Positions 15,570 through 54,645 of a DNA stretch of 64,000 nt are shown here, one piece after another. Numbering within the stretch: position 1 is the stretch's first letter; each line of letters begins with the position of its first letter. Both the position numbers and the translations under genes were made by a program. Location of the stretch: the IMG/VR virus record IMGVR_UViG_2788500220_000014, positions 37,405-101,404 of that record; one strand, 5' to 3'. Below the pieces are notes generated by a model, which was not told where the DNA came from, ran no database searches, and saw nothing but the letters and a program-made list of their open reading frames with translations. The stretch is from a virus (taxonomy: Duplodnaviria > Caudoviricetes).

Positions 15570-15713
15570 TTCATTTAATAGCTTTGCACGGTATATTGAA
15601 AACTGTTGGTACGATTGGCCTCCCTGGACTAGTTCAAGCTCTTCATCGCTTAGTTCTGTTACATCTTTAAGATCTTCTTGTGCGGCCTGAGGCTTATTTG
15701 TTTTCATCTTCAT
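15522..15713 (-). CDS. double-glycine-leader peptide (bacteriocin/RiPP precursor-like)
   Basis: ELSDEELELVQGG followed by a 31-aa putative core. Confidence 0.55.
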   Translation of the reverse strand: MKMKTNKPQAAQEDLKDVTELSDEELELVQGGQSYQQFSIYRAKLLNESGIKLNRYRIFETKM

Positions 15714-15945
15714 CTTCTTTTTGAGACTTTTTGCTCCACTTATCTTTGGGCATTAATTTTTCAATTCTGAAGCTTAAAGCTTTCATACCATTAACAGTAG
15801 GCTGTCCAAGGTCATCTACACCTATTTCTTTAACTGTTGTTCTTTTATTTTTAAAACGACCGGTAAGAATAATGTCACCCTTTTCTAAATCTAGCTCTAA
15901 CATTTCCCTTATTATCATTCTTAATTGACGCTCAGTAGTCTTCAT
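15694..15945 (-). CDS. leader-tagged protein (MKTTERQLRMIIRE)
   Basis: Shared leader; KGDIILTGRFKNK..GQPTVNG. Confidence 0.8.
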   Translation of the reverse strand: MKTTERQLRMIIREMLELDLEKGDIILTGRFKNKRTTVKEIGVDDLGQPTVNGMKALSFRIEKLMPKDKWSKKSQKEDEDENK

Positions 15946-16468
15946 TGTGGTGCCTAATTGTAAGAGCATGTTCCAATGATTGCTCAAGTTCTTTAGTAAT
16001 CCCTGTCAGAGCGTTGTATATTGCACCTAGTACTTTAGGGTCGGGCTCACCATGTGGACCAGCATATCCGAGCTCTGCTACAAGGTCCATTATTTGTTGA
16101 TATGCATCCTCATACGTAGTCTGATCTGCACCATCGTAGCCATATGGCCCTTTTTTGAGCTCTTCTTTGATATTTTTAATACGCCTGGAATATTGCTTAA
16201 TTGCATTTTCAGCAGCATAAAGGTACGGGCGGCTATAGTCTTTAGCAGGCATGCCCTCTTTTTCCCTAATACTATCTATATCATTTCGAAGTGAAAGAAG
16301 ATCTTCTATAGAGACATTAATATCATCGCTAGCGCCCATGGGACTAAGAAGCTGACCGTTTATAAAAGACACCAGCCTATCTTCACGCGATTCAAGACTT
16401 TGAAGGCTTGGCATGCCCACCATCGATTCTCTAATAATTTTCCTAAGCTGTCGTTTTGTAATCTTCAT
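15932..16468 (-). CDS. leader-tagged protein (putative head internal protein)
   Basis: MKITKRQLRKIIRES. Confidence 0.8.
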   Translation of the reverse strand: MKITKRQLRKIIRESMVGMPSLQSLESREDRLVSFINGQLLSPMGASDDINVSIEDLLSLRNDIDSIREKEGMPAKDYSRPYLYAAENAIKQYSRRIKNIKEELKKGPYGYDGADQTTYEDAYQQIMDLVAELGYAGPHGEPDPKVLGAIYNALTGITKELEQSLEHALTIRHHNEDY

Positions 16469-16765
16469 TTACCTGCGGTTCCTTGTTGCCGGTGAAGTAT
16501 GATGTTCTTCAGGGGGAATGGTCTTAGACTGCCTAACTTCTCTAGCGACAACCTCTAGAGCATGTGCAATACTCTCAACATATATAGGATTAATCCATAC
16601 ATCTTCGCCGATCATATCCTGAGAAAATTCTTCCTCGATGTAGTTCCAAACTCCATTTTGTACGCCACGTGAGATGCCCTCTTCAACATCCGGGCTCATC
16701 TCAGAAAGAAGGCGCGCTTTCTCTTCTTTAATGATTCTTCTTAGTTGTCTCTTTGTGGTTCTCAT
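16469..16765 (-). CDS. leader-tagged protein
   Basis: MRTTKRQLRRIIKEEKARLLSE. Confidence 0.8.
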   Translation of the reverse strand: MRTTKRQLRRIIKEEKARLLSEMSPDVEEGISRGVQNGVWNYIEEEFSQDMIGEDVWINPIYVESIAHALEVVAREVRQSKTIPPEEHHTSPATRNRR

Positions 16766-16806
16766 AATGTTATTTCCTTAAGTCCCGGTGCATCCCAACT
16801 GGGTGG

Positions 16807-17601
16807 TTACCGGCCTGCTGCCCGGGTGAAAATCTTGATTATCTCTGATAGCGCATGCGCTTCTTCATCATTGGCCGGAGGTTCATAAAAATAATATTCT
16901 CCGATCCACCGAGTTCCGTGTGGGCCTGGAGAAGGGGAGACAGCTTCGGCCATGGCTAAAATAATCTTGAGTACCCCTACCTGGGTCGGCTCCGGCGGAT
17001 CCTCTGGTAAATCTTTACTGAAACTGCCACCATAACCTTCGGTGCTCATAGTATATTCAACGGCTTTAGAGATGTACCCTAGAATTCCACTGGCCCCATG
17101 TCGCTCTAAAACATCCTGGTATCGGTTATCCTGAGGGCCTTTGAATGCTTTATGAAGATGAAAATCGAATTGCCTTGCAGTTGCTAGATCTGTCTGATAT
17201 TGATCCACATCAGCCTTGCCGCGTCCAGAATCCCACCAGCTCCCCTTGAACCATGCAGGTGTAGATATACTCTTCCTACCCTTCTTCCTGCCCTTCTTCC
17301 TGCCCTTCTTCCGAGGAAGAGTGGCAGCCAAAGTATCTAACCAGCCTGGTTGATTATTGGATATCCAGTCTAATTGTTCATCCCAATCCAGGTCTTGTTC
17401 ATATCCCGGGATTTTTTCCCATAAACCTGCATTAACTAAGTCATCTGCCAAAGCATTAGCGCCGTCGGTCATTGAATGCATATCCGATATTTCATCATAC
17501 TTTGCATATAACCTATCATATGCTGGCCCGCCACCCTCTGAAATGACCCGGGCCACTTCTTCTTTAATGATTCTTCGCAGTTGGCACTTGGTAATTTTCA
17601 T
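16807..17601 (-). CDS. leader-tagged protein with RKKG repeats
   Basis: MKITKCQLRRIIKEE; (RKKG)3. Confidence 0.8.
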   Translation of the reverse strand: MKITKCQLRRIIKEEVARVISEGGGPAYDRLYAKYDEISDMHSMTDGANALADDLVNAGLWEKIPGYEQDLDWDEQLDWISNNQPGWLDTLAATLPRKKGRKKGRKKGRKSISTPAWFKGSWWDSGRGKADVDQYQTDLATARQFDFHLHKAFKGPQDNRYQDVLERHGASGILGYISKAVEYTMSTEGYGGSFSKDLPEDPPEPTQVGVLKIILAMAEAVSPSPGPHGTRWIGEYYFYEPPANDEEAHALSEIIKIFTRAAGR

Positions 17602-18002
17602 TATACTTTATCCCTTTTCGAAAGTACTGATACTCCAATTGCAGAATATATTTCCGGACCTACATGGTGATTAACTTGTTTAAGCTTTATACCCTGCCAA
17701 TTAATCGGGGGCTCCAAATAATCAGTCGGAGGAAGTGCTGCACCCTCCGCTTTTAAAGCTTTCCATGCTATGTCCCTATCAGACTTGTCATCAAAAATAA
17801 CCATGTTTCGAATAGAGAACATCGTTTGCCCGCCTTTGCCTCTTTCTGATCGTTGTCCGGATTTTGGAAGGTTATTTAGAGGCTGGCCACCAAAGCGGTC
17901 TGCTATAGCAACAGTTGCAGACCCTACATCCCATTGATTTTCTGAAAGCATTTCAAGTTCTTCTTTAATGATTCGCCTGAGTTGTCTTTGAGTAATTTTC
18001 AT
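17601..18002 (-). CDS. leader-tagged protein
   Basis: MKITQRQLRRIIKEE. Confidence 0.8.
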   Translation of the reverse strand: MKITQRQLRRIIKEELEMLSENQWDVGSATVAIADRFGGQPLNNLPKSGQRSERGKGGQTMFSIRNMVIFDDKSDRDIAWKALKAEGAALPPTDYLEPPINWQGIKLKQVNHHVGPEIYSAIGVSVLSKRDKV

Positions 18003-18985
18003 TTTAAAATCCCAGCCAACCTTTGCCATTTTTCGATAAGTAGATCATCCCTGGTTTTTCTTGACTCTGTTTTTGTTGCATTTCCAAGAGCATTTCCAAG
18101 AGCAGTAAGAAACTTAAGTGTGCGTTTCTCATCACCAAGAGATTGTAGATCAACTTGTCCTGCAGTGCCTAGTGATGCTGAAGGATCGTTCAACATCGTT
18201 GCTGCCCACCGATGATGGCCATCAAGGATCTCTCCGTTCGTACCTGCCCAAGCATCTAGATCACCCCCTGCAATTTGGTTTTTTGGGTTCATTGCCATCC
18301 CTAGGGCCTTGTATATAAGAATATTTGATTGGGTTGGTATAGCATCGCTTGCAGGAACTGATCCACCCTTAACAACCTTGATATCATCATCATCTTTATT
18401 CCCATCATTTTCTTCATGGCCGGATGTCATAAATTCTTTAGATTCAGCGTCATCCATACCTACAAATGTATTGGGCGCAGGAGGTACATTAAACTTTCCC
18501 CTCTTAAGATTTACTTTTCTTTCCTTAAGGGCCCTGATGTTTGATACATCATTCTTTTGGACGGCTTCATTGTGTGTGTCAATATTAAACTTGCCTCCAG
18601 GCGAAAGAGCATCAACTACTTGATCGACTGAACCTTTGGCATCTTCCGGGCCAGGAAGAAACGGCATGACAGACTTAGGTAATCCAGAAGTTGGTATTTT
18701 TGATGCCAACGTTTTGATTCTAGAAGCAACTTCCTCAGGTCCAATTTTTTCTACCCACTCCTTTGCCTGTGCACCGTTAGTAGCGAACCACTGGCCTTGA
18801 GTTGATTTAACAATTGGGGCATTATCATCTCCGGAAAGTAGCTGATTTACTATTTCGATTGGGTCAACATCTTTAACATTTGTTGACTTATCAACTGCGT
18901 CGCCCCGAGGAGCATCACCAATTTTACCGGTTGATTTCTCCTCTTCTTCAAATAAGATACTTACTAAGCTTGGAATTTTTTTCAT
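17999..18985 (-). CDS. ParB/Sulfiredoxin-like domain protein
   Basis: IPTQS..ILDGHHRWAA; ends IEKWQRLAGILK. Confidence 0.75.
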   Translation of the reverse strand: MKKIPSLVSILFEEEEKSTGKIGDAPRGDAVDKSTNVKDVDPIEIVNQLLSGDDNAPIVKSTQGQWFATNGAQAKEWVEKIGPEEVASRIKTLASKIPTSGLPKSVMPFLPGPEDAKGSVDQVVDALSPGGKFNIDTHNEAVQKNDVSNIRALKERKVNLKRGKFNVPPAPNTFVGMDDAESKEFMTSGHEENDGNKDDDDIKVVKGGSVPASDAIPTQSNILIYKALGMAMNPKNQIAGGDLDAWAGTNGEILDGHHRWAATMLNDPSASLGTAGQVDLQSLGDEKRTLKFLTALGNALGNATKTESRKTRDDLLIEKWQRLAGILK

Positions 18986-19455
18986 CCTGATGTCCTCATC
19001 GGTCCTTCAATTATTTCATTTAAAAATGCCACAAAATTCTTAGCACTTTTCTTATCGTGGATGCTAAGTGCTTTTTTATCATCGACATATATTTCCATGG
19101 TCAGACCATCCCATGTCCACGCAGCCTTAATATTACCAATCCCGATTATGTCCTCTTCCCTAACTGGATCCCGCGGGCCAGATTGTTCTTTTTTCTTTTT
19201 GCCCCAAAACTCAGATAATTTACGAATTTCTTCTTTAATAAGTGCAGAAGGATCATGACGGCGCATACCAGAATCCCACCTAACCGAAATTTGCCTGTCT
19301 CTTTTATTTGATTTTGCAACAACACGGCCAACACCAAGGTGCGCATCGTCCTTATGGCGAACGATATCACCTACCGTGATGTTAAACGTAGGCCTAGACT
19401 CTGAGAATAATTCTTCTCTAATAATCTTTCTTAGTTGATGCTTGGTAATTTTCAT
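18982..19455 (-). CDS. leader-tagged protein with SH3/KOW-like domain
   Basis: MKITKHQLRKIIREE + VGDIVRH..LGVGRVV..SVRW. Confidence 0.8.
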   Translation of the reverse strand: MKITKHQLRKIIREELFSESRPTFNITVGDIVRHKDDAHLGVGRVVAKSNKRDRQISVRWDSGMRRHDPSALIKEEIRKLSEFWGKKKKEQSGPRDPVREEDIIGIGNIKAAWTWDGLTMEIYVDDKKALSIHDKKSAKNFVAFLNEIIEGPMRTSG

Positions 19456-19456
19456 C

Positions 19457-19801
19457 TTACCATTCTCCGGTGTCATTGCCATCTTCATCTAGCATTACAG
19501 CATATTCTTCAAGCTCTTCATATGTTGTAGCCATAGTAGTAGAAAAACTATTCGGATATTCATCAGATGCAGCAGCTGACATTATATGGCCATACCAATA
19601 GCGGAACGCCCTGGCTTCAATCGACCTATCTGGTACTAGCTTGGTAATCTCGAGCGCTTCTTCTGTTAGTACTTGAATCTCTTGCATGATATCCTTAAAT
19701 CGATATAGATCATTCTCATCTAGGCCCTCAAATTGCTCTTTAAGAATACGAGATTTTTCCTCACGAATTATTCTTCTTAACTGTCGTTTTGTAATTTTCA
19801 T
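19457..19801 (-). CDS. leader-tagged protein
   Basis: MKITKRQLRRIIREE. Confidence 0.8.
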   Translation of the reverse strand: MKITKRQLRRIIREEKSRILKEQFEGLDENDLYRFKDIMQEIQVLTEEALEITKLVPDRSIEARAFRYWYGHIMSAAASDEYPNSFSTTMATTYEELEEYAVMLDEDGNDTGEW

Positions 19802-20103
19802 TATCGTAACCCAAACTCTATAAGCTCTTCAGCATCATCAATAATCGTGCCAAGATAATCTGACAACTCTGGGAACAGTTCATAAAGAGATTCTTCCACC
19901 TCTTCGCGATCGCCTCCACCCTTAAAGATATTAACAGCTGTATCCCTGGCTTCCATTTCTATGTCCATGATCTTGGGTTCCCAGCCACCCTCAGGTTCTC
20001 CATACATGGTACCATCATGTGGATTAGCCTCACGATCAATAAAGAAATCTTTCTCAATAGTTTCCTTGATGATTCTTCTTAGTTGCTTTTTTGTAATTTT
20101 CAT
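19801..20103 (-). CDS. leader-tagged protein
   Basis: MKITKKQLRRIIKET. Confidence 0.8.
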   Translation of the reverse strand: MKITKKQLRRIIKETIEKDFFIDREANPHDGTMYGEPEGGWEPKIMDIEMEARDTAVNIFKGGGDREEVEESLYELFPELSDYLGTIIDDAEELIEFGLR

Positions 20104-20104
20104 T

Positions 20105-20893
20105 TTAAAGTTCCCTGTATATATCTGCTAATGCTTGCTTCAAATACTTTCGGCCATTTTCCCCTAGCTCAGCAAATAATTGCGATAAAATCTCCTTTAC
20201 AGAATCCTTATTGTTCGCTGCGTCAATAGCAACTAGAAGAGGTTGTACGCCACTTTTATCTAGTGCAATGTCTGCTTTTTTTCCTGCAGCAGTCTTTGAT
20301 TCTGCACCGGCATCAGCAGAAGCTTCATCTTCAGGATTTTCTTTAAGAATTTCTTCTCTAATAATTTGCCGTAAGCGGCTTTTCGTTATATTCATTGCTT
20401 TATTCTCCCATTGTCTTTGTGCACTTTTTGTTTTTAGACGTTTACCCATTCCAGATCTCTGAGGTACTTTTTCATAGTCTAAATCTAATCCAGGTACCTG
20501 TAGGGCTGCTAGCTCCTGTCGCTCTTTTTCCCACTCTGCTTCACGCTCAGCATTAAATGCATCATCTTCTGCCATAGCTTCAGCTTCACGATCTAAGTCA
20601 TCAATCGCCGCTTGAACTTGTGCGACTGTCTCAAACCTTGCCCAACGTGGTCGGATACCATGAAGCGATTTGAATGCGTCTGAGTACGTCTGAGATAAGA
20701 TCTCAAAGGCTAACTCTTCTCCAGTTGTAATACCTCTCTCTTCCCAAAATGACTGATCTGTAACAAGGGTCATACCATATAATCCTGGGCCAGCTTGGGC
20801 ATTAATTTTCTCAGCTTCTTCCTGTGCAGTAGGTGCAAAGCCTGACATAGCTTCACGAATTATCTTCTCTAGTTTTTTGCGACTAATTCTCAT
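20105..20893 (-). CDS. leader-tagged protein with second internal leader
   Basis: MRISRKKLEKIIRE; YSDAFKSLHGIRPRW; internal MNITKSRLRQIIREEILKE. Confidence 0.8.
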   Translation of the reverse strand: MRISRKKLEKIIREAMSGFAPTAQEEAEKINAQAGPGLYGMTLVTDQSFWEERGITTGEELAFEILSQTYSDAFKSLHGIRPRWARFETVAQVQAAIDDLDREAEAMAEDDAFNAEREAEWEKERQELAALQVPGLDLDYEKVPQRSGMGKRLKTKSAQRQWENKAMNITKSRLRQIIREEILKENPEDEASADAGAESKTAAGKKADIALDKSGVQPLLVAIDAANNKDSVKEILSQLFAELGENGRKYLKQALADIYREL

Positions 20894-20902
20894 GTTATCA
20901 TC

Positions 20903-22279
20903 CTAATCATAATATGGCATCATCGGTGGACCCTGGGGCGGCCGGCGGCCCAAGGTTTTTCCTGCTCTTCTGTTCAGGAAGTCTAAAAATTTTGGAACAT
21001 CAATCTGATCTTTTGGAACAGCCACCTCACCAACACCATGTGATATACTATCTGGTGCGGAAAGCCTTATATACCTCTTATACTCTTTCCATCCTAGGGT
21101 CTTTAAATCCTCAGGGGTGACCGTGGATGTAAAATGGTTTGCCAATAGTTCTAGCCATTCTTTATCTGGGTCAGATGTTATAGCACTACTTTGTCGAGCT
21201 TTTTCTATTTTCCACGCTTCATTTTCTATTGCATCAGTGTCACGACGTGTCACACCATTGCTGTACAATAGATCTGCTAGTTCACTATCATCTAAAAATA
21301 CTGGTAAATCAGACCACCCAAATATTGGCAATAATATCTCTGCAGCCTCCTTATATTTTTTTGCTTTGGCAAGTGGAACTACGACAGCTGCAATTTCATC
21401 ATCACTATTCTTTGCAGTAAGGGTTTCATTAATGATCCCTGCTATCTTTAAAATCCTATTATATGAAGCGGCAATCGTTTCTTTAGCAGGATCTTCACCT
21501 GATATCCATTCTCCATATTTCTTAATATATTTTGAGACTCCGTTGCTAATTCCTGTGTATACTGTATCAGCAACAATATCCTTGAATATCTGTTTACTAG
21601 GCCGGCTATTACCATACCCAAAACTATAAGAGCTCTTATTTTCATCTGGCAACGAGCTATATAAATCCGCAACTTCCTTACTGTCAGCCCACTCGGTATA
21701 GCCTGATGCGATATCTGCTGAGGCATCTTGCCCGTATTGAAGCACATAATCTCCGGGGCTATCCCATTGTTGGTAGCTGCTTCCATCTTGCCACATCTTA
21801 GGATTATTATAGGCATCATGCATAGTATCCATGGCCCAATCTTCTCCGCCGGCTTCAGCATCATTCAATATTTTTTCTTTGAGAGCTTCATATTTTTCTT
21901 CAGCTTCTTCTTCCTGGCGCTTTTCTTCAGCTTCAGCTTCATCTTCCCTGGCAAAATGCGCATCCCAGTCGTAGTCGGGATCTGACTCATCTGTAATCGG
22001 GCCTTTTTCTTCAGGCTCTATATACCACTGACTGTCTGGGTACCACTCTTGCTCTTCCATGGATTCACCAGCTGGAATCATCATTTCAAATGATTCCGGA
22101 TCTTCAACATCTGTCTCTACCTGATCACCTGGTTCGAGCTCATCCAAGAACATCTCCATATCAGCAGTCGTTTGAAATTCTGGAACAGTATATCCTGCAT
22201 CATACTCTTTAAGAAGTCTTTTTGCACGGATCACTTCTTCCTTGATGATTCTTTTCAGTTGTCGTTTTGTGATTTTCAT
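20903..22279 (-). CDS. leader-tagged acidic protein
   Basis: MKITKRQLKRIIKEE; internal RILKIAGIINE. Confidence 0.8.
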   Translation of the reverse strand: MKITKRQLKRIIKEEVIRAKRLLKEYDAGYTVPEFQTTADMEMFLDELEPGDQVETDVEDPESFEMMIPAGESMEEQEWYPDSQWYIEPEEKGPITDESDPDYDWDAHFAREDEAEAEEKRQEEEAEEKYEALKEKILNDAEAGGEDWAMDTMHDAYNNPKMWQDGSSYQQWDSPGDYVLQYGQDASADIASGYTEWADSKEVADLYSSLPDENKSSYSFGYGNSRPSKQIFKDIVADTVYTGISNGVSKYIKKYGEWISGEDPAKETIAASYNRILKIAGIINETLTAKNSDDEIAAVVVPLAKAKKYKEAAEILLPIFGWSDLPVFLDDSELADLLYSNGVTRRDTDAIENEAWKIEKARQSSAITSDPDKEWLELLANHFTSTVTPEDLKTLGWKEYKRYIRLSAPDSISHGVGEVAVPKDQIDVPKFLDFLNRRAGKTLGRRPPQGPPMMPYYD

Positions 22280-22577
22280 TATATTCCTCTTCCGGTATGC
22301 TACTTTCGACGTCATCAGCCAAGCCACGGAGGTCGGCAGCTAACTCATGCCATTCCGACGGATTCGTTTGATCCATTGCTTGATTTATTATGTCAGCAAG
22401 GGTATGCCATAGTGGTTGATCATAAGAGCGGCCTTTAATCTTAACGCTTGAAAGGCTTCCTCGTTGAGCATCCATCTTTGCTGCTGCGATCCCCATATCA
22501 GCAGGAGTCATTTCATTTATTAGCTTAGAATGTTCTTCTTTAATGATTCTTTTTAATTGTCGTTTTGTGATTTTCAT
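22209..22577 (-). CDS. leader-tagged protein
   Basis: MKITKRQLKRIIKEE; 3' end overlaps next gene by ~70 nt. Confidence 0.75.
   Translation of the reverse strand: MKITKRQLKRIIKEEHSKLINEMTPADMGIAAAKMDAQRGSLSSVKIKGRSYDQPLWHTLADIINQAMDQTNPSEWHELAADLRGLADDVESSIPEEEYNENHKTTTEKNHQGRSDPCKKTS
22235..22280. repeat. 46-nt perfect repeat of leader-coding DNA (second copy 24009-24054)
   Basis: TTCTTCCTTGATGATTCTTTTCAGTTGTCGTTTTGTGATTTTCATT at both sites. Confidence 0.85.
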
Positions 22578-23332
22578 TAGTCTAACCTTACGTCAATAAT
22601 ATCTGGCACCATACGCTTAAGTTCTCGTAAACCAGCTGGATACATACTTCCAGGCATCTCAACTACTATGTCGATTGCCGTACCGTTATCACCTAGTTCC
22701 ATTACAACACCTGACATTTCGTCACCAGGTTGTATTCCGCCATATTCATCTTCATAATCTTCCCATGCATCGAAGCCCATATAGAATGTACCACTGCTTG
22801 GGCTGTAGCCAAGATAAGACTCCTGCCCTTCGCTATATCCGGATCGTTGAAGATACTGCCAGGCCTCACCAACACCGGGGCCCTCATAAAATACCTGATA
22901 TACGTTTACTCCATCAACCATTACACCTTCAGGCCAGGCGGCACTAACTTGTTCTTCGGTAACATCTGGATCCGTAAGTTCGGCCGTGATACCACTCATA
23001 TTACTTTCAGAAAGCCCTTCTTCTGATTCTGCAGCTGCCTTAAGGGCAGCTTTAGCTCTTGCGCGCCGGGTTTCAGAAGCTTTTCGGGCCCGATAATCCG
23101 CGGGGGACTCATCACCATACGGATTTTCTCGGCCGTAATAGTCAGCCTGTCTCTCGTTCCGGGTCCGTTGCGCTTTACGTGCACGATAGTCTGCTGGAGA
23201 CTCGTCACCATATTCGTTGTCAGGGCCATGGAGTCGATCGTTTAATCTTCTTTGAGCCTCAGGTGAACGTTCAACAAGTCTTGAGATCTCTTCTTTGATT
23301 ATTCTTCTTAGTTGTTTTTGTGTAATTTTCAT
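22577..23332 (-). CDS. leader-tagged protein with duplicated YGDESPADYRARKA
   Basis: MKITQKQLRRIIKEE. Confidence 0.8.
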   Translation of the reverse strand: MKITQKQLRRIIKEEISRLVERSPEAQRRLNDRLHGPDNEYGDESPADYRARKAQRTRNERQADYYGRENPYGDESPADYRARKASETRRARAKAALKAAAESEEGLSESNMSGITAELTDPDVTEEQVSAAWPEGVMVDGVNVYQVFYEGPGVGEAWQYLQRSGYSEGQESYLGYSPSSGTFYMGFDAWEDYEDEYGGIQPGDEMSGVVMELGDNGTAIDIVVEMPGSMYPAGLRELKRMVPDIIDVRLD

Positions 23333-23775
23333 TCTTTCTGCATCCACTCGTCCCCCCAATCGAGGTCGTCCATCCATGAGTCATCGCCGGCGTCTTCGTC
23401 GTCTTCGTCGTCATCAAAGGTCCCAAGAGCCAATAGGCTATCCCTTAGGTCAGCTGGAGCAGACCCATCATCTATAGCCCAATTAATCTCATCCTCTACA
23501 TCGGTGGGATCAGGGCTGCCATCATCAGTCATTTGATCAATACGTTGAGATAGAGGGTGATCTGGGCCCAATACATCCCTTATGTCTTCCCACATATAGT
23601 CAACAGTGTCAGTCCGGCTCTCATACTGTTCCCAATGTGCATCGGCAGCCAGAAAATAAGGGTGCCTCTTCGGCTTCTTCTTCTTTTTGTTTTTCTTTTT
23701 CTTTTTCTCAATTAGAATATTTCTAGAAATTTCTTCCTTGATGATTCTTTTGAGTTGGCTCTTTGTGATTTTCAT
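23329..23775 (-). CDS. leader-tagged protein with poly-Lys tract and acidic tail
   Basis: MKITKSQLKRIIKEE. Confidence 0.8.
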   Translation of the reverse strand: MKITKSQLKRIIKEEISRNILIEKKKKKNKKKKKPKRHPYFLAADAHWEQYESRTDTVDYMWEDIRDVLGPDHPLSQRIDQMTDDGSPDPTDVEDEINWAIDDGSAPADLRDSLLALGTFDDDEDDEDAGDDSWMDDLDWGDEWMQKE

Positions 23776-24053
23776 AGTCTTATCCCCAGGTTCCGAGCGA
23801 TTCTTTCAAGCATTCCCTCAAGTTCCTCCGAAGCATCCATTAAATCATAGTCATCGGTACCATATGCTTCTTGCAGTTTATCAGCAAACTCAAACATTGC
23901 ATTTAAAAAGCCCTTTGTCCCATCATGTAATCTCCAGTAATCCTCACCTGATACTGCCATGGACTCATTTTGAAGTGAGGCTCTCTCTTTTTTACGGTCG
24001 CTTGATATTTCTTCCTTGATGATTCTTTTCAGTTGTCGTTTTGTGATTTTCAT
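23772..24053 (-). CDS. leader-tagged protein
   Basis: MKITKRQLKRIIKEE. Confidence 0.8.
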   Translation of the reverse strand: MKITKRQLKRIIKEEISSDRKKERASLQNESMAVSGEDYWRLHDGTKGFLNAMFEFADKLQEAYGTDDYDLMDASEELEGMLERIARNLGIRL

Positions 24054-24054
24054 T

Positions 24055-24291
24055 TTAAAATCCTCCTGCCCTAATTGTATCTGCTATATCGCGATCTGGT
24101 ATGCCCATTGCTCGACAGCGCTCAATGCATGCTGTGAGATCGTCTAACGCCTCGAGTTGATCTAGGCTTCGATTTACATATAACTCTTCATCGACGTCAT
24201 TGTATTGTTCACCATAACGAGGGGCCTCTTTTAGCAATTTAAGCTTCTCTTCCTTAATGATCCGTTTAAGCTGTCTCTTGGTTATTCTCAT
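24055..24291 (-). CDS. leader-tagged protein
   Basis: MRITKRQLKRIIKEE from ATG 24291. Confidence 0.8.
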   Translation of the reverse strand: MRITKRQLKRIIKEEKLKLLKEAPRYGEQYNDVDEELYVNRSLDQLEALDDLTACIERCRAMGIPDRDIADTIRAGGF

Positions 24292-24292
24292 T

Positions 24293-24394
24293 CTAACATT
24301 GCCCTTTACAGCTAGTGCAACCGCAACAACCGCAACAGCAACAACAATGACTGTCATTAAATAAATTTGCTAATCTGTGTAATACCTTTTTCAT
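24293..24394 (-). CDS. 33-aa Cys-rich peptide (metallothionein- or RiPP-precursor-like), absent from ORF track
   Basis: MKKVLHRLANLFNDSHCCCCCGCCGCTSCKGQC; AAGGAG RBS; fills the gap between two array genes. Confidence 0.7.
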   Translation of the reverse strand: MKKVLHRLANLFNDSHCCCCCGCCGCTSCKGQC

Positions 24395-24430
24395 TTTTAA
24401 TCTCCTTTTATTGTTGATTGGTAACCTTCA

Positions 24431-24808
24431 TTATACCGGGGTTCCTTCAATTAACCATGTAAATAGATGCCATGGCTCACTTTCATTCCAGTATTCAGAA
24501 TATCGATCAGCCCAATCTTCAAAAGCATCAGTAAAATCTTTATTAAGCGCTGCCTTATCTGGTGCGATTGTGCCAGATTCCAGGCCTGATATTACGTCGG
24601 TAAATTGGGATAGATCTCTCTTCATATCATCATACCATGTGGTTGACTTATCTTGTGGATTGATCTGTTCAAACCCATACATCTGATTAACAGTTTCGTG
24701 CCAGGTATCAGGCTCGCGAGGGCCCTGATATGGGTCGTCGACACTATCAAACCACGGGTCAAGTTCTTCTTTGATGATCTGCTTAAGCCGGCTTTTTGTA
24801 ATCTTCAC
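24431..24808 (-). CDS. leader-tagged protein
   Basis: GTG start VKITKSRLKQIIKEE. Confidence 0.8.
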   Translation of the reverse strand: MKITKSRLKQIIKEELDPWFDSVDDPYQGPREPDTWHETVNQMYGFEQINPQDKSTTWYDDMKRDLSQFTDVISGLESGTIAPDKAALNKDFTDAFEDWADRYSEYWNESEPWHLFTWLIEGTPV

Positions 24809-24809
24809 T

Positions 24810-25166
24810 TTAATATCCCTCCGGGCGGGCCCATGCAATTATTTCGTCATCCGACATATCTTGTGCCATTACACTCGATGCCTTTGCTGCGGCTACAAAT
24901 TTCCTTGAGTCTCTTTTTGCAAGAGAACCTGGTGAGATCGAAATATCCATCTCAGCAAAGTCTCTAAACCCTAATTCATATGCCATATGATCCAGGTCAA
25001 GTATTCCGATATCCAATGCCTCAGAAAACTCGTACCAATTGGAATCCTTTGGGGGATAGCCATTCACCGGTGATGGTGGGCCGTGCGTACCAGTTCGATA
25101 CTCATTAACAATATGGGATACTTCTTCCTTGATGATCCGCTTAAGCTGTCTTTTGGTTATTCTCAT
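24810..25166 (-). CDS. leader-tagged protein
   Basis: MRITKRQLKRIIKEE. Confidence 0.8.
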   Translation of the reverse strand: MRITKRQLKRIIKEEVSHIVNEYRTGTHGPPSPVNGYPPKDSNWYEFSEALDIGILDLDHMAYELGFRDFAEMDISISPGSLAKRDSRKFVAAAKASSVMAQDMSDDEIIAWARPEGY

Positions 25167-25167
25167 T

Positions 25168-25587
25168 TTACCATGCTCCTGGTGTACCTTGAGGAAAACT
25201 GTATGCCTTACCATACTCATCTTGTTCATCGAGGATCATAATAATATCCTCAAATGATCGGAGACCAGGAAGAGTATGATCGTATGCAGGTAAATTAAAC
25301 AGATTATGGCTTCGGGCCCAGCGTACAAACTCTGACATATCTGTAGGTTGTGGACTTAATTCATATTCAGGTGTACCATAATTCGGATGTAAAGAAATTG
25401 TATAATCATCAACCACCTTGCCGGTGTCATCATATACGGTTACAGATGCCGCATCTTCACTCATGCCTCGATAGTTGAGGATGTCATATTCACTGTGCGC
25501 GCCGGCTGGAATGTTTGACGATTCGTGAAGGAGGCGGGATACTTCTTCTTTAATGAGCCGCTTAAGCTGTCTTTTGGTTATTCTCAC
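25168..25587 (-). CDS. leader-tagged protein
   Basis: MRITKRQLKRLIKEE. Confidence 0.8.
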   Translation of the reverse strand: MRITKRQLKRLIKEEVSRLLHESSNIPAGAHSEYDILNYRGMSEDAASVTVYDDTGKVVDDYTISLHPNYGTPEYELSPQPTDMSEFVRWARSHNLFNLPAYDHTLPGLRSFEDIIMILDEQDEYGKAYSFPQGTPGAW

Positions 25588-25598
25588 CGTGTTGTCTC

Positions 25599-25922
25599 CT
25601 ATCGATACATATCGGGGTTTGATAATACGTCTTCTAACTCAGCAATCTTATCATCGATTGACATCATACCAAACTCAGAATCATTGACTGTAGTAGCACC
25701 CATTGCTCTTTCTGCTTCAAGCGCCTCGATTTGATCTGCCTCGAATCCCGGGGCAGAAAGTATCTTTCGGTCACCTATGATTACACCATCAAATGCTGTA
25801 CCTGAACTATAAGTTACATTAACGACATTCTCACGCAGCTTACGCCGGACCTTGGCCTCAGCAATCAGCTTAGCCTTCTCTTCTTTGATTATTCGTTTAA
25901 GCTGTCTCTTGGTTATTCTCAT
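25599..25922 (-). CDS. leader-tagged protein
   Basis: MRITKRQLKRIIKEEKAKLIAE. Confidence 0.8.
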   Translation of the reverse strand: MRITKRQLKRIIKEEKAKLIAEAKVRRKLRENVVNVTYSSGTAFDGVIIGDRKILSAPGFEADQIEALEAERAMGATTVNDSEFGMMSIDDKIAELEDVLSNPDMYR

Positions 25923-25939
25923 CGTGTTGTCTCCTATGA

Positions 25940-26365
25940 CTATTGTATTCTATATACCGCATCTAAAGTTGAGTTGTCAACGTCAACCCAGTCACCACCA
26001 TCCCACATCATATATGCATCTGGGCCGGCGCTATATGGCGAGTTCATATCATCCCACCAGTGAACCAGCGTGCCATTAACAATAAAGAATTCAGATTCTG
26101 ATAATAGTTGATTCTGCGTTGGAACTTCAGTTTCGAAGTCCCCAGGGGAATGATCTGCACCTAATAGCCAATTCAAAAGATTTTTCTCTAACATCATCAT
26201 GGCATCTGGGAACATAGATCTAGCATCTTCTAACGTTACCTGTCTATTGCCCGGGGCATTCTCACATAATTTACGCCTGACCAATCGTCGGACCTTGGTC
26301 TCAGCAACCAGCTTGGCTTTTTCTTCTTTGATGATCCGCTTAAGCTGTCTCTTGGTTATTCTCAC
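25940..26365 (-). CDS. leader-tagged protein
   Basis: MRITKRQLKRIIKEEKAKLVAE. Confidence 0.8.
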   Translation of the reverse strand: MRITKRQLKRIIKEEKAKLVAETKVRRLVRRKLCENAPGNRQVTLEDARSMFPDAMMMLEKNLLNWLLGADHSPGDFETEVPTQNQLLSESEFFIVNGTLVHWWDDMNSPYSAGPDAYMMWDGGDWVDVDNSTLDAVYRIQ

Positions 26366-26508
26366 CGTGTTGTCTCCTATGACTAATCATATAATAGAGA
26401 CTCTCACGACACCAGCTTATGTGCGATAAATTTTTGGATTGTGTGAGTCTCATTTTATTTTCTCCTCGTGGGCACAGACTTTACAATATCCCACGCTTTT
26501 CACTAAGT

Positions 26509-27303
26509 TTAAAATTCTAATTCAGAGGCCATTTGCTCTTCAGTTCCGATCAGGCCATTTGCTTCTAAGTTTGATATCAAATAAGCTAATGCTTCAGGTT
26601 CAAGCCGAACACCAAAGCTCGTATGCCATGAATCAGAAACATAATCCGGATCAATCCACCCAATGCCCATATGAATATCTTCAGCAAACTGATTATAATC
26701 ATCTTGGCTTATAGATAATTGATACCGATTATACTGTTCAAGTTCTTCTTTAATTAAATCTCTAAGTTGTTCTCTAGAAAACTTCATATCCTTGCTACCT
26801 TCTCCAAGTTCTGTTGGGCTTAGGTCCTGACTGTCGATCAACATGTCATCAATTGTGGCTAGGATCGCATCATAAGTTTGGCGTCGGACATCATCTCGCA
26901 TGTTTGTATCACCGAACCGACGGCCCAAGTATGGAACTTGTTCCCAAATCCATGCATTTGATTTCTGGATTCCCTGGCCACCAGGGCCGAAGAAAATATA
27001 TCCCATTGATTGATCTTCAAGCCCGACCTTACCAGGTTGATCAACAACTAGCCATTTTTGCTTAGAACCCTGTTCATCAATAAATTCAATTGATATTCCG
27101 GAATATCCTGAATCAAACATTTGCACATTTACATTAAAAAGGCCGGCGTCTTCAAACACTGTATCAATTTCATCTGCAAAGCTGACAAGGTGTGGATACT
27201 TTTCTTCATACTTGTCCATTCCCCAACCACGGCTCTTTGAAACAGGCATCTCATTAAGTGCTGTTTCCTTTATAAACTTACGCAACTGGTTAATTGAACT
27301 CAT
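26509..27303 (-). CDS. leader-tagged protein with internal leader
   Basis: MSSINQLRKFIKETALNE; internal MKFSREQLRDLIKEELE. Confidence 0.8.
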   Translation of the reverse strand: MSSINQLRKFIKETALNEMPVSKSRGWGMDKYEEKYPHLVSFADEIDTVFEDAGLFNVNVQMFDSGYSGISIEFIDEQGSKQKWLVVDQPGKVGLEDQSMGYIFFGPGGQGIQKSNAWIWEQVPYLGRRFGDTNMRDDVRRQTYDAILATIDDMLIDSQDLSPTELGEGSKDMKFSREQLRDLIKEELEQYNRYQLSISQDDYNQFAEDIHMGIGWIDPDYVSDSWHTSFGVRLEPEALAYLISNLEANGLIGTEEQMASELEF

Positions 27304-27412
27304 GTACATACCCTCTTTACCTTATTAAGTATCATGTCCGATAGTAAATATACAGCCATAATCACTCGTTGGATACTAGTTTATCCACTTAAAGTGAATA
27401 ACCAAGAATTAA

Positions 27413-27769
27413 TTATATCAGGGGCACCTCAAAGTTGTTAATTTCATCTAAAGACTCTAAAATTACAATCTTAATCGGGTTTTTTTCTTGCACATCTTTC
27501 ATTTTATGGCGCGCAGCGTCAGTCCAATATCCCTTTACTTCAATATAGACACCATAATCAGGTAAATAGAAGTCAGGAATGTACTTTCTCTTTCTTCCTC
27601 TGATTGTGTGATATAGGAAATGCATACTTTCATCCCTAACCCACTTTACTCCAAGCTCATCTAATCTTTTTGCGAAGGCTGTTTCCCATGAGCTATCCAT
27701 TGATACTTCAAGCCCATCAACGGTTGTGTATATTGATTGTTTGCTCCATAGCTTTTTTTTCTTACTCAT
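27413..27769 (-). CDS. PD-(D/E)xK endonuclease (phage endonuclease I-like)
   Basis: SSWE..YIPDFYL..IEVKGYW. Confidence 0.85.
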   Translation of the reverse strand: MSKKKKLWSKQSIYTTVDGLEVSMDSSWETAFAKRLDELGVKWVRDESMHFLYHTIRGRKRKYIPDFYLPDYGVYIEVKGYWTDAARHKMKDVQEKNPIKIVILESLDEINNFEVPLI

Positions 27770-27845
27770 TATACCCTCAAATTGTACCATATAATTATCA
27801 GCAAGTGCATGAATGCAATATAAGCACTTTATTGGATAAAATAAA

Positions 27846-27992
27846 ATGGATCAATTATTAATGGTATGGGTATGGCTAGATATCATAGCAGATATTATCA
27901 TTATAAGCTATGCCAGCTGGTATGCATATAGAAAATTATCGGCTTGGGGGAAAAAATTTAGCCAACATATCCGCCAAGGTCTTCGAAGCTAG
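27846..27992 (+). CDS. small membrane peptide
   Basis: Manual 48-aa ORF with one TM helix. Confidence 0.4.
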   Translation: MDQLLMVWVWLDIIADIIIISYASWYAYRKLSAWGKKFSQHIRQGLRS

Positions 27993-28261
27993 TAGTACGG
28001 ATTGATTCCTTGAGAATGATCTGTTGCATCTTCAACAGACTCGAGGCCTGGAAATTCCGTTGTCAAGGCATGCGTAATCATTAGCTTAAGCGTAATAGTT
28101 GAACTAGCACAGCCTTGACAGCCTCCCCCCATGGTAACGTATAGTATCCCTGACTCTTCATCATAACTATGGATATTCAAAAATCCTCCATGTGATGCCA
28201 GGCCTGGGTTAATATCTTCTTCGATATATTTTTCTATTTGTTCTTTACTTGGGCGATTCAT
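27989..28261 (-). CDS. NifU/NfuA C-terminal domain Fe-S carrier
   Basis: INPGLASHGG..GGGCQGC..DATDH..G.NPYY. Confidence 0.92.
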   Translation of the reverse strand: MNRPSKEQIEKYIEEDINPGLASHGGFLNIHSYDEESGILYVTMGGGCQGCASSTITLKLMITHALTTEFPGLESVEDATDHSQGINPYY

Positions 28262-28613
28262 CTTTTATCCTTCCTGGATCAAATGATATTGATTCGCCAC
28301 ACCCGCAAGACTTCGATGCATAGGGAGTATTAAATGTAAAACCTGAGGATAGAATCGTTTCCTCATATCCTATTTCAGTACCATTTAAAAATATGAACGA
28401 TTTTCGGTCGCAGTATATCTTAAGGCTGCCATGATCAAAGATCCGATATATATCTTCATTTTCAGGTGGTGATATAAAATCTAGCTCATACTTAAAACCC
28501 GAGCACCCCCCTCCACGAAGGCCTACTTGTAAAACATAGTCATCAGGCTTGTTCATTTTCTTCTTAAGCTCTAGAGCCTTTGCTAAAGCTACTTCTGTTA
28601 TTTTAAGATCCAT
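28245..28613 (-). CDS. iscA: A-type Fe-S cluster assembly protein (IscA/HesB family)
   Basis: GGGCSGFKY..SCGCGES. Confidence 0.92.
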   Translation of the reverse strand: MDLKITEVALAKALELKKKMNKPDDYVLQVGLRGGGCSGFKYELDFISPPENEDIYRIFDHGSLKIYCDRKSFIFLNGTEIGYEETILSSGFTFNTPYASKSCGCGESISFDPGRIKDESPK

Positions 28614-28692: not shown

Positions 28693-29940
28693 ATGTCGAC
28701 AATCATAATAATTTTATGTCTCCCTCTCTTATTTTTCTTGTGGTGTGGAATTCATGAGACAGCACACATTATAGCAGCAAGATCATATACAAAATTATCA
28801 AATGTTAAGTTCAAACTATATCCTCATAAAAATAAATCCCTAGGATTTGTGTGGGCTTCAGTATCATGGAAACCAGAAAAAAGATTGTCTGATTCAGAAT
28901 TTGCATGGGTATCAATAGCACCAAGATTCCCTGATATCCTGGCTGTAATCCTTTTTCCGCTGTGGGCATTAATGCCAAATGGCACAGCCATGCTTATATG
29001 GGGTGCAATATGGGGTGCAGGCCTGATTGATCTATTTGTAGGGTCACTTGGAATTAGTAAAACATCGGACTTGAGGAGAGCTGCAAAAGGGTGGGAATGC
29101 AACCCTTGGATACTTCGAATAAATGGAATGATGCTGATATTAGTTAGCGCAGTTACGGGTGTATTATTGTTTTTATATGCAGCACCCGTCAATGAAGCAG
29201 GCAACACACATGACATTGATGCAGAAACTATACAACATGCATCTAGCTCAACATGTGACCCAAGCGTACACCAGTTTCCGAATGAGGGTTTAACGGAGTG
29301 TAAGTCATCACCGGTATGCCCTGCAGGAATGGCACAAGTTGATAACTTTTGCATGGATAGATTCGAAGCATCGTTGATTAATATTGAAACAGGCTCATCA
29401 TGGTCACCATACCATCATCCACCAAAGAATATACGTATCCAGGCCGTGTCATTATTGGGTGCAGTACCCCAGGGGTATATCGACGGCCTGTCTGCTTCGC
29501 GTGCGTGCACGGCTAATAATAAAAGGTTATGTACGTCCAAGGAGTGGCTACGAGCATGCCGCGGCAAGAATATGCATATATACCCATATGGGAATAAAAG
29601 GTTACCAGGAACATGCAATGATGCAAGGACAATACATCCTGCAATAGAACTATTTGGCAGGCATAAAAACGTTTTTCAGAAAATCCAGAATCCATGTATC
29701 AATCAATTATTAGACAGTGTTAGCCTCACGGGGGGGCATCCAGAATGTGTTACAGGTGAATCTATATATGATATGATGGGGAACCTTCATGAATGGATTG
29801 CCGATGATACAGGGACGTTTAGGGGAGGTTACTATGTTGATACATACCGCAACGGGCCAGGTTGTCTATATAGAACAACTGCACACTCTATACACCACTG
29901 GGATTACTCAACCGGATTTAGGTGTTGTAAATCATTATGA
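28693..29940 (+). CDS. membrane zincin-like domain fused to FGE-sulfatase (SUMF1) domain
   Basis: N-terminal HETAH + TM helices; C-terminal CP.GM, FCMDRFE, KRLCT..EW..AC, YDMMGNLHEW, GFRCC. Confidence 0.85.
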   Translation: MSTIIIILCLPLLFFLWCGIHETAHIIAARSYTKLSNVKFKLYPHKNKSLGFVWASVSWKPEKRLSDSEFAWVSIAPRFPDILAVILFPLWALMPNGTAMLIWGAIWGAGLIDLFVGSLGISKTSDLRRAAKGWECNPWILRINGMMLILVSAVTGVLLFLYAAPVNEAGNTHDIDAETIQHASSSTCDPSVHQFPNEGLTECKSSPVCPAGMAQVDNFCMDRFEASLINIETGSSWSPYHHPPKNIRIQAVSLLGAVPQGYIDGLSASRACTANNKRLCTSKEWLRACRGKNMHIYPYGNKRLPGTCNDARTIHPAIELFGRHKNVFQKIQNPCINQLLDSVSLTGGHPECVTGESIYDMMGNLHEWIADDTGTFRGGYYVDTYRNGPGCLYRTTAHSIHHWDYSTGFRCCKSL

Positions 29941-38401: not shown

Positions 38402-38566
38402 ATGGCTAAGCGAACAAAATTTTCACAGCGAAAACATGAAAGACGGAAAAAGAAAACTAGGCAAGGAGCTGGAAAGTTTACTAAGTGGGGCCATAAGGGT
38501 GGTGGGCCATCCGGTAGTACTGCATCAAAAAAATATCGAAAAAAATATAGGGGCCAAGGACGCTAA
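38402..38566 (+). CDS. small basic phage protein ending KKYRGQGR, absent from ORF track
   Basis: MAKRTKFSQRKHERRKKKTRQGAGK...KKYRKKYRGQGR; AGGAGG RBS. Confidence 0.8.
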   Translation: MAKRTKFSQRKHERRKKKTRQGAGKFTKWGHKGGGPSGSTASKKYRKKYRGQGR

Positions 38567-45214: not shown

Positions 45215-46276
45215 CTAATTTGAGCCTTGCTCAAACTTTCTTAATAGTTCTCTTTGCTCTGATGTTATCTTTTTTGGAATTTGAATTTCAATGTGTACAT
45301 AATGATCTCCGTACATAGAGCCCCTAAGGTTCTTAATCCCCTTGCCATGAATTCGCAAAGTTGTATTAGGTTGAGTTCCGAACGGTACCTTTATTTTTTC
45401 ATTTCCCTGAACTGTTTCAACATCCAAAACTCCACCCAAGCATGCAGTAACAAAAGATATTCTAGATGTTGTATGAATATCGGTACCCCTTCTTTCAAAT
45501 TTCCTAGATGGGTTAATTTGAATAGACGCCATTAAATCGCCAGGGGGGCCGCCCAATGAACCAGCATTTCCTTTTCCTGCAACTCGTAAACGATTTCCTA
45601 CGTTGATGCCAGGGGGAATGTTGATAGCAATGCTATCAGTAACATCGATGCTACCAACGCCGCGGCACATACTACAGGGGGTTGTCGGTATAGAGCCCGA
45701 CCCCCTGCATTTTGGACATGCAGACTGTACTACCATAGGGCCTTGTTGAAAACTAGAATATCCTGTACCACGACACATATCACATACGGTACGTGATGTA
45801 TTAGGCTCCTGACCTAAACCAGTGCATCCAGTACATGTGTCTTTTCTGGTAAGATTTATTGACTTTTGGCAACCCTTAACTGCCTCTAAAAAATCGATTG
45901 TTAAACTAATATTGATATCCGGGCCACGTTGGGGCCCCTGGGGACGTGTCTGGTGGTGGCCGCGGCGACCAAAAAATTCACCAAATATATCCTCAAATCC
46001 CCGGAATGGATCTGAGTGTTGTGATGATCTTCTATATTGATTATCAAATGGATTAGGCCCGGAATGACCAAAAGCATCATAGTCTTTGCGCTTCTGCTCG
46101 TCAGATAATGTTTGATATGCCTCGGAAACTTCCTTAAATTTGTCTTCGGCCGTTTTATCACCAGGATTCTTATCAGGATGATACTCTAAAGCTGCCTTCC
46201 GATAGGCTTTTTTAATCTCTTTGCTATTAGCAGTACGAGCTATACCAAGCACCTCATAATAATCGCGCTTGGCCAC
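45215..46276 (-). CDS. dnaJ: molecular chaperone DnaJ (full class A architecture)
   Basis: [12 protein letters not shown], four CxxCxGxG repeats, C-terminal domain. Confidence 0.96.
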
Positions 46277-54364: not shown

Positions 54365-54367
54365 TGT

Positions 54368-54397
54368 ATTATACTCCTGAGAACTGAAGATTTACAC
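54368..54397 (-). promoter_or_regulatory. phage promoter GTGTAA-N18-TATAAT abutting cca start
   Basis: Conserved motif. Confidence 0.55.
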
Positions 54398-54399
54398 GA

Positions 54400-54645
54400 T
54401 TAAATCCAGATTTTAATACAGCCATAATTTAAAAGGCTTTCAGATCTATTTACATCATATTGATCTAGTATCGATAAAACAATTTTCTTCATTTTATCTG
54501 AATTACCGGTGATGATATAAGCTTCCTCTAATTTACTCCAATGATCTGATAGAAAGTTGTGGCACTTTGCCTCTACATCCTCATGATTTGTACCATGAAG
54601 ATCAAGGGAAGGGGCGGGACGCTTCTTTTTATTTTTTCTTGCCAT
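54400..54645 (-). CDS. Smr/MutS2 C-terminal domain protein
   Basis: LDLHG..IITGNS..N.G. Confidence 0.88.
   Translation of the reverse strand: MARKNKKKRPAPSLDLHGTNHEDVEAKCHNFLSDHWSKLEEAYIITGNSDKMKKIVLSILDQYDVNRSESLLNYGCIKIWI

Follow-up and report, generated by a model that had tools for sequence, protein, structure and literature searches.

An N-terminal leader shared by an array of otherwise unrelated proteins in an uncultured marine T4-like jumbo phage: a candidate tag for encapsidation and processing

A leader array on the minus strand

We analyzed a 64,000-nt stretch of viral DNA, referred to here as the window, which covers positions 37,405 to 101,404 of the IMG/VR record IMGVR_UViG_2788500220_000014 (C25:37405-101404 in a 33-contig, 4.9-Mb bin) and carries an array of genes whose products share a short N-terminal leader. 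Using the six-frame regular expression [IT][TS]xxxL[RKE]x[ILF]I[KR]E together with a listing of open reading frames (ORFs), we counted 21 copies of the leader in the window, all on the minus strand between 15904 and 26359. Twenty of these copies are the N-termini of ORFs that lie from 15.7 to 26.4 kb and begin M[KR]ITKRQL[RK]RII[KR]EE, and the remaining copy is internal, within ORF 20105-20893, where it has kept its own Met (Table 1). A 17-residue hidden Markov model (HMM) of the leader gave 22 matches scoring 21.9 to 38.1 bits, which correspond to the 21 array copies and one gene on contig C16 just past the end of the window. The next-best match on the phage contigs reached 9.8 bits, and the leader is absent from the 4.6-Mb bacterial remainder of the bin, where the best score was 10.8 bits. 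The array is real and far beyond chance. The leader is an amphipathic, basic N-terminal helix of about 22 residues, MKITKRQLRRIIKEE, usually followed by xxRLLxE, with a hydrophobic core between basic residues.

A preliminary description of this DNA had reported a contiguous array of 21 genes extending to 27303, in which a common leader, often followed by further [IL]xE sites, precedes unrelated and mostly acidic sequences. The common leader is borne out by the regular expression and by the clean separation of HMM scores (at least 21.9 against at most 10.8 bits). The array is not strictly contiguous, since an untagged gene (17999-18985) interrupts it, and at its head ORF 26509-27309 holds only diverged leader-like segments. 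The additional sites were recovered as well, with a second [LIV]xE ending at residues 21 to 23 in 13 of the 21 leaders. We refer to what follows the leader as the payload. When the first 23 residues were removed and the payloads were compared with each other, none of 231 pairs matched (blastp E<=0.01), in agreement with their description as unrelated. They are also mostly acidic, as described, with an isoelectric point (pI) of 4.1-5.4 for 18 of the 21 leader-bearing ORFs (26509-27309 included), the other 3 being basic.

One explanation for a recurrent 5′ sequence is that it acts as nucleic acid, either as a site for recombination and cassette shuffling or as a translation-enhancing 5′ coding element, with a functionless peptide. 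The leader DNA includes two near-identical subfamilies (at 22.2-26.4 kb) and has A-rich first codons, and the genes are packed stop-to-start (TAAnATG, ATGA), suggesting translational coupling. However, leader DNA identity in the array averages only 70% and 53% of codon pairs encoding the same amino acid use different codons, from which we conclude that selection acts on the peptide. In addition, the peptide is kept across phages whose GC content ranges from 0.34 to 0.51, internal copies that have no start codon are conserved, and a head-module protein has a homologous N-terminus, as detailed below. The synonymous-site analysis largely refutes a nucleic-acid function, which we consider highly improbable, and the near-identical subfamilies point to recent duplication or gene conversion among neighbors.

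Table 1. Features of the leader arrays and their surroundings, in window coordinates.
Position	Strand	Feature	Basis
15694-15945	-	Tagged gene, 83 aa, leader variant MKTTERQLRMIIRE, basic payload	HMM 26.0 bits
15932-16468	-	Tagged gene, 178 aa, acidic payload	Regular expression, HMM
16469-16765	-	Tagged gene, 98 aa, leader MRTTKRQLRRIIKEEKARLLSE, two [LI]xE sites	Regular expression, HMM
16807-17601	-	Tagged gene, 264 aa	HMM 38.1 bits
17601-18002	-	Tagged gene, 133 aa from leader Met, basic payload	Regular expression, HMM
17999-18985	-	Untagged gene, 328 aa, interrupts array	ORF listing
18982-19455	-	Tagged gene, 157 aa, basic payload	Regular expression, HMM
19457-19801	-	Tagged gene, 114 aa	Leader kept in metagenomic homologues, 45-50% identity
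19801-20103	-	Tagged gene, 100 aa	Regular expression, HMM
20105-20893	-	Two-cassette ORF, 262 aa, diverged N-terminal leader MRISRKKLEKIIRE	HMM 21.9 and 28.5 bits
20354-20395	-	Internal leader MNITKSRLRQIIREE, Met before it, inside ORF 20105-20893	Regular expression, HMM
20903-22279	-	Tagged gene, 458 aa, largest payload	HMM
22209-22577	-	Tagged gene, 122 aa	ORF listing, leader DNA
22577-23332	-	Tagged gene, 251 aa	Regular expression, HMM
23329-23775	-	Tagged gene, 148 aa, poly-K after leader, very acidic tail	Regular expression
23772-24053	-	Tagged gene, 93 aa	Regular expression
24055-24291	-	Tagged gene, 78 aa	Regular expression
24431-24808	-	Tagged gene, 125 aa, GTG start	Regular expression
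24810-25166	-	Tagged gene, 118 aa	Regular expression
25168-25587	-	Tagged gene, 139 aa, GTG start	Regular expression
25599-25922	-	Tagged gene, 107 aa	Regular expression
25940-26365	-	Tagged gene, 141 aa, GTG start, first canonical leader gene of array	Regular expression
26509-27309	-	ORF at array head, 266 aa, diverged N-terminal leader-like segment SINQLRKFIKE	HMM 8.7 bits
27412-27441	-	Sigma-70-type promoter-like site, TTAACA, 18 nt, TGATATAAT	Best such match on 101-kb contig
52484-63323	-	Eight consecutive type-2 leader genes, M.LL[RK].YI[RK]E[LV]L.E	Leader pattern search
58280-59143	-	Diverged type-1 leader gene MIKITKSRLRKLIRKS, interspersed in type-2 array	ORF N-terminus

Pfam and PHROGs searches of all window payloads gave nothing above noise, and the 458-aa payload matched no fold or family and had no usable match in the ESM Atlas. 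The payload most conserved across relatives is that of 15694-15945, found at 9 loci with 77-86% identity. For the 114-aa product of 19457-19801, an AlphaFold2 model of low confidence (pLDDT 58 with five homologues, too low for a fold search) places the leader within a helix spanning residues 5-25. ORF 26509-27309 contains, in addition to its N-terminal segment, an internal diverged leader-like segment, MKFSREQLRDLIKEE, at about residue 179 (E 7e-5 against a leader region). ORF 22209-22577 has no stop before the next gene and continues out of frame through 70 nt of the leader of that gene, an overlap (window 22209-22279) that adds a 23-residue tail. Two basic payloads resembled a neighboring family of small SH3-like genes by eye and were rejected as relatives for want of blastp support. 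The product of the untagged gene 17999-18985 has a DGHHR motif (DGHHRWAATML) reminiscent of ParB/sulfiredoxin-type domains and no Pfam or PHROG match; its homologues adjoin leader genes in two phage contigs (L026, 68% identity; L012, 46%).

The phage and the distribution of its leader

Tetranucleotide composition groups C25 with three other contigs of the bin, with correlations of 0.99 for C16, 0.97 for C13 and 0.96 for C6, against 0.85 or less for all others. These four contigs are one uncultured marine T4-like jumbo phage of roughly 255–290 kb. They have a summed length of ~287 kb, of which ~256 kb is non-redundant, and are mis-binned in a Halobacteriovorax-like metagenome-assembled genome (MAG). 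C16 and the end of C25 cover the same 31,176 bp, where they differ at 531 positions (98.3% identity), pointing to either two strains or assembly redundancy. The rest of the bin is Halobacteriovorax-like, with an RpoC 95% identical to that of a Bacteriovoracaceae MAG, and no small-subunit ribosomal RNA was found in the bin. Other leader contigs sit in MAGs labelled Methylococcaceae, Verrucomicrobiales, Gemmatimonadetes and Peribacter, and one leader protein is on a contig labelled Euryarchaeota. Binning is therefore no evidence for the host.

C13 is the structural module, with nearly all genes on one strand. It encodes Portal_T4/gp20 (E 5e-79), the prohead protease Peptidase_S77/gp21 at C13:52398-53027 (PF03420, E 8e-27), an acidic scaffold-like protein of 608-620 aa, and a Gp23-type major capsid protein (MCP) of 621 aa (Gp23, E 4e-62). 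The MCP is at most 42% identical to that of any cultured phage, the nearest being Flavobacterium phage immuto, RM378 and Microcystis phage Mel-JY01, and is 38% identical to that of the 484-kb uncultured huge phage LR756508. Elsewhere in the window there are cell-like auxiliary proteins (2005-2886, 27989-28613, 28693-29940, 38563-40119 and 45215-46276), which include L7/L12 C-terminal-domain, NifU-like and IscA-like Fe-S, FGE-sulfatase-domain and patatin-like phospholipase proteins and a full-length type-I DnaJ.

Scanning IMG/VR gave 60 loci with the leader, many on contigs of 140-293 kb with GC content from 0.34 to 0.51, where arrays on a single strand hold as many as 23 copies in 20 kb. In five near-complete genomes of relatives the leader ORFs number 17, 27, 23, 31 and 39, spread over several clusters in each. 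Gp21 is encoded by every one of the 14 large leader-bearing contigs tested, so the preliminary proposal to look for a prohead protease was answered in this phage and in every such contig. Gp23 is encoded in four of four leader-bearing contigs tested, and a capsid protein of nucleocytoplasmic large DNA viruses in none of four. A motif widespread on cellular proteins had been named as evidence against a phage function; across 185,579 species genomes we found the leader at just six loci, which lie in MAGs from unrelated phyla and appear mis-binned; otherwise it is restricted to phage contigs. When 1.84 billion cluster representatives were searched with the profile, 8,024 proteins had the leader at E<=0.001, many of them with two or three copies. 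The profile applied to selected phage records found ~15 copies in LR756508 and none in T4, RM378 or Mel-JY01. A tblastn search of INPHARED with one tagged protein and the 23-aa leader gave no match, although the low-complexity filter may mask the leader. Neither the motif nor a description of it was found in the literature searched.

Likeness to prohead proteins and to known internal proteins

Gene order is the same in the head modules of 10 members of the lineage, running from the portal gene through genes for a ~284-aa protein, gp21, proteins of ~115 and ~140 aa, a basic protein of ~95 aa and three small proteins to those for scaffold and MCP. The N-terminus of the ~140-aa protein, which is encoded shortly after gp21 and kept in all 10 modules, reads MAK[IVM][ST][KR]xxLKx[IL][VI]KECLVEILxEGL (MAKITKRMLKGIVKE in relative G009). 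Aligning the leader with this N-terminus gave an hhalign probability of 95.2% (E 2.5e-8) over 24 in-register columns. The score of 30.7 was reached by none of 300 column shuffles (mean 7.8, standard deviation 2.0, maximum 17.8), and the leader scored 8.4 against the scaffold N-terminus, a negative control. The leader could also be aligned with the ~95-aa basic protein (KLTPxxLR[KR]LVLEEK[RK][KR]L), with E from 1.3e-4 to 1.8e-4. Judged by these profile alignments, the leader is homologous to the N-terminus of the conserved ~140-aa head-module protein, and it appears to be derived from, or to mimic, the N-terminal helix of a prohead-core protein. The preliminary description had proposed that the scaffold or MCP precursors might carry the motif; neither does, and the homologous N-terminus lies on the ~140-aa protein instead. 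A segment of T4 gp67, DLIKEEKIAIAR, scored 2.9 bits against the leader, third of 461 fragments, and was set aside as not significant.

Leader genes also occur beside head genes. Five of them follow immediately after the MCP gene in relative G007. The protease gene of LR756508 has leader-type genes on both sides, five upstream of it and six downstream, with others 15-22 kb beyond the MCP gene. Just after that MCP gene, paralogous ~250-aa proteins (LR756508 177696-183575; L094, L095) share the N-terminus M[KR]LK.[IL]L.E and may represent another leader class. Six small proteins without a family match, encoded from gp21 to scaffold (C13:49606-52398 = L086:7606-10398) and kept in 10 of 10 head modules, are candidates for lineage-specific prohead core or internal proteins. 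A bS21-like gene lies between the core proteins and the scaffold in several head modules (L078:5597-5821, L080:4729-4956, L081:5338-5556, L085:8689-8946) and is annotated RpsU in Mel-JY01 (L089:8098-8325); the head module of the window's phage does not have it there.

The leader also carries what looks like a processing site. I-x-E ends at residue 14 in all 21 window leaders. Among 333 tagged ORFs from ~60 viral loci, conservation is 100% for E14, 97% for I12, 94% for I11 and 97% for L8, and 53% have a second [LIVM]xE at residues 18-24, compared with 10% of control windows. When the MCP N-termini were aligned with T4 gp23, its FLTE/AEIGG site (the slash marking the cut) fell on [VQ]L[RK]E/A[NS] in this lineage, on LISE/AN in Mel-JY01 and on LLKE/AS in LR756508. 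In sequence, then, the I-[KR]-E of the leader matches the MCP maturation site predicted by this alignment, L-[RK]-E/A, with an aliphatic residue at P3, a basic residue at P2 and Glu at P1. Twelve ORFs contain an internal second leader in which the Met is often V, I, T or G. The persistence of the element without Met argues that it is maintained internally, as expected for a cleavable inter-domain linker, and gp21-type proteases are known to use multiple or redundant sites within one propeptide (PMC5694885, PMC9026906).

This combination recalls the internal proteins (IPs) of T4, which carry capsid targeting sequence (CTS) propeptides of 10-19 residues that direct them to the scaffolding core and that gp21 cleaves off (PMC3012670, PMC9026906, PMC5694885, PMC9391042). 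Apart from the CTS these proteins are diverse, and they counter host defences (PMC3012670, PMC9026906, PMC9391042). In the T4 record, IPII and IPIII start MKTYQEFIAE/A and gp22 starts MLKEQLIAE/A; the T4 tag thus likewise resembles the N-terminus of a core protein, by the same logic of mimicry. As with the CTS of IPI, IPII, IPIII and Alt, the leader is short, N-terminal and common to otherwise unrelated proteins, and the phage has a gp21-type (S77) protease, a gp22-like scaffold and a gp23 MCP. At the sequence level the leader ends in the aliphatic-x-Glu motif type that gp21 cuts; it is similar to the start of a head core or scaffold protein, and its loci are hypervariable. However, it is longer than the T4 CTS (15-22 against 10-19 residues), is strongly basic and has no detectable homology to MKTYQEFIAE. 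T4 has 3-4 tagged genes, whereas there are more than 20 here and 17-39 per related genome, and the internal leader copies in fused ORFs of this lineage are a further difference. As we read it, the leader system would work like the T4 CTS but lacks the sequence homology and the basic payloads that strict membership in that class would require.

Other known systems share parts of the pattern. In phiKZ-like phages (phiKZ, 201phi2-1, SPN3US), many head-internal proteins are cut C-terminal to Glu by a gp21-related protease, as is predicted here. Their propeptides have redundant sites, and some paralogues have kept identical N-termini, as in SPN3US gp53 and gp54, which share MANFVKSKLARESVE (PMC5694885). 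Most of these propeptides exceed 100 residues and are cut at A/S-x-E, with no single portable tag, whereas the leader described here is 15-22 residues long and shared; moreover, the head module is T4-type (Portal_T4, Gp23), and we saw no phiKZ-type features in it. T-even internal proteins have been described as a diverse set that has only the CTS in common, and at their polymorphic loci variable ORFs keep the leader only, which is read as an arms-race repertoire against restriction (PMC3012670, PMC9026906). Our loci follow this pattern but differ in the more than 8,000 metagenomic clusters, in the two leader classes in one genome and in the lineage itself, an uncultured marine jumbo group with the distant MCP noted above. 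The CTS concept itself is already known, and the novelty lies in its scale, in a leader that is different and longer, and in the lineage of the phage.

We hypothesize that the leader is a CTS-type tag for encapsidation and processing, used at a scale not described for T4, and assign this reading a probability of about 0.6. By this model, the leader copies the N-terminal helix of the conserved prohead-core protein, so that a tagged protein would co-assemble with the scaffold and core during prohead formation. The gp21-type protease would then cut after I-[KR]-E (residue 14), in many cases with a further cut after [LIV]-x-E at residues 21-23, freeing the payload inside the head. Payloads would enter the next host with the DNA, most plausibly as first-response proteins for counter-defence or host takeover. 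Core binding, cleavage, presence in the virion, injection and effector function are all predictions for the tagged proteins. The capsid-targeting interpretation in the preliminary description is in part supported, by co-occurrence with gp21, confinement to phages, homology to a head protein and the match to the MCP site.

Counter-evidence, other readings and a second leader class

Several observations weigh against encapsidation. In most relatives the arrays are far from the head module. The ~140-aa protein has no family match, and its presumed place in the prohead core is read from gene position alone. Payloads across relatives have a median pI of 4.65, with 82% below 6, and the window's payloads likewise lack the basic character of the CTS-tagged T4 IPs (computed pI 8.9-9.5). 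About 95% of payloads have no recognizable domain, and [LI][KR]E is not depleted inside them (1.36x expectation, compared with 1.32x in untagged proteins). Neither the profile of this leader, which we call type 1, nor that of the type-2 leader described below matched anything in the whole T4 genome. The position of the array also suggests, from sequence, early transcription by host RNA polymerase and not purely late expression. It is located among small early-type genes, and the promoter-like site of Table 1, which is near-consensus with an extended -10 and overlaps the stop codon of ORF 27413-27790, is ~100 nt upstream of its first gene. The T4 late promoter TATAAATA occurs at chance level on the phage contigs, with no enrichment. 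The T4 IP and alt genes are presumably also transcribed before late times, and if so an early promoter is not decisive. A second sequence, GTATAATA, was considered as a promoter element and rejected: intergenic DNA is enriched in it, but it has no diagnostic value and does not occur upstream of the array.

Another reading is that the leader has nothing to do with the capsid. It could be an amphipathic basic helix that docks early host-takeover proteins on a single hub (for instance RNA polymerase, the ribosome, a membrane, or a chaperone of host or phage origin), with the head-module protein using the same hub. The promoter and the clusters of tiny early-type genes on either side of the array would be expected of such proteins, and small acidic proteins without domains are typical of phage early genes. 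Further, a full-length DnaJ is among the phage's proteins, basic residues flank the hydrophobic core of the leader, and the payloads do not avoid the cleavage motif. This leaves unexplained the 14/14 co-occurrence with genomes that have a gp21-type protease, the in-register homology to the very N-terminus of a protein whose gene lies between those of the protease and the scaffold, and the invariant Glu in an I-[KR]-E context like that of the MCP site. It also does not account for the enriched second [LIV]xE site or for leader genes beside the MCP (G007) or protease (LR756508) genes, and we regard docking on a hub as unlikely.

A different possibility accepts targeting to the core but not delivery, with the tagged proteins serving as acidic filler that is degraded and gone before DNA packaging, as are T4 gp67 and gp68. 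The acidity of the payloads is then as expected, since T4 gp67, gp68 and the scaffold are acidic; the closest relative of the leader is itself a probable core protein, and [LIV]xE motifs in the payloads are at or above expectation. However, each genome has 17-39 unrelated payload families with fast turnover, and the global total exceeds 8,000 clusters. This resembles an arms-race repertoire, and a structural need would not yield such diversity. The loci we fetched hold 341 tagged ORFs in ~191 payload families. Payload orthologues are 45-86% identical across phages, which argues that they are folded, functional proteins. A few are enzymes, including a P-loop kinase and a tRNA-ligase CPD domain with the type-1 leader and, with type 2, a CCA-adding enzyme and an RNase T exonuclease. 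We therefore consider acidic filler to be quite improbable.

Beyond the array, the window contains a run of genes with the second leader type (Table 1), and two more of them on C16 (C16:31304-34011) bring the run to 10 consecutive larger genes. A further type-1 gene sits among the type-2 genes at C16:33358-34011. In the CCA-adding enzyme named above, the enzyme is fused to a HAD-type domain, and the exonuclease is of the RNase T type. The type-2 leader (for example MKLLREYIRE) is kept in relatives G008 and G009, and the host bin shows one chance match. Positions M1, L4, Y7 and I8 are invariant and E10 is present in 7/8. Mutagenesis of the T4 IPIII CTS assigned positions 4 and 7 to targeting and 8 and 10 to processing (PMC9026906), and the conserved type-2 positions coincide with these four, although this is a short, post hoc motif match. 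The type-2 leader resembles T4 MKTYQEFIAE at positions 1, 2, 6, 7, 8 and 10, and a strict pattern common to both, M[KR]xxxE[FY]IxE, occurs at 0 of 8,846 host ORF starts. Two profile comparisons were not significant: type 2 against the scaffold N-terminus (hhalign probability 0.4%) and type 1 against type 2 (E 0.018, probability 2.6%, in the expected register).

We tentatively propose, with rather less confidence than we place in the type-1 tag, that the two leaders form a portable encapsidation code across an uncultured clade of marine T4-like jumbo and huge phages, in which 30-50 proteins per virion may be pre-loaded for injection. Under such a code, type 1 (MKITKRQLRRIIKEE) would mostly mark small acidic proteins and type 2 (MKLLREYIRELL) mostly enzymes. 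If so, more than 8,000 families in ocean metagenomes would be virion-delivered effectors and make up a catalogue of candidate anti-defence proteins, possibly together with an injected RNA-repair kit.

If the leader is indeed an encapsidation tag, the internal-protein paradigm would grow from the 3-4 proteins of T4 to dozens in each virion of marine jumbo phages that are abundant, and the leader would be a second independent case of a tag arising by copying the N-terminal helix of a prohead core protein. A simple sequence rule would single out thousands of unannotatable proteins as likely injected effectors, and the first-response injection of phage proteins alongside DNA would become testable at metagenome scale. 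The leader may also serve as a new, portable signal for packaging proteins into phage capsids used for delivery.

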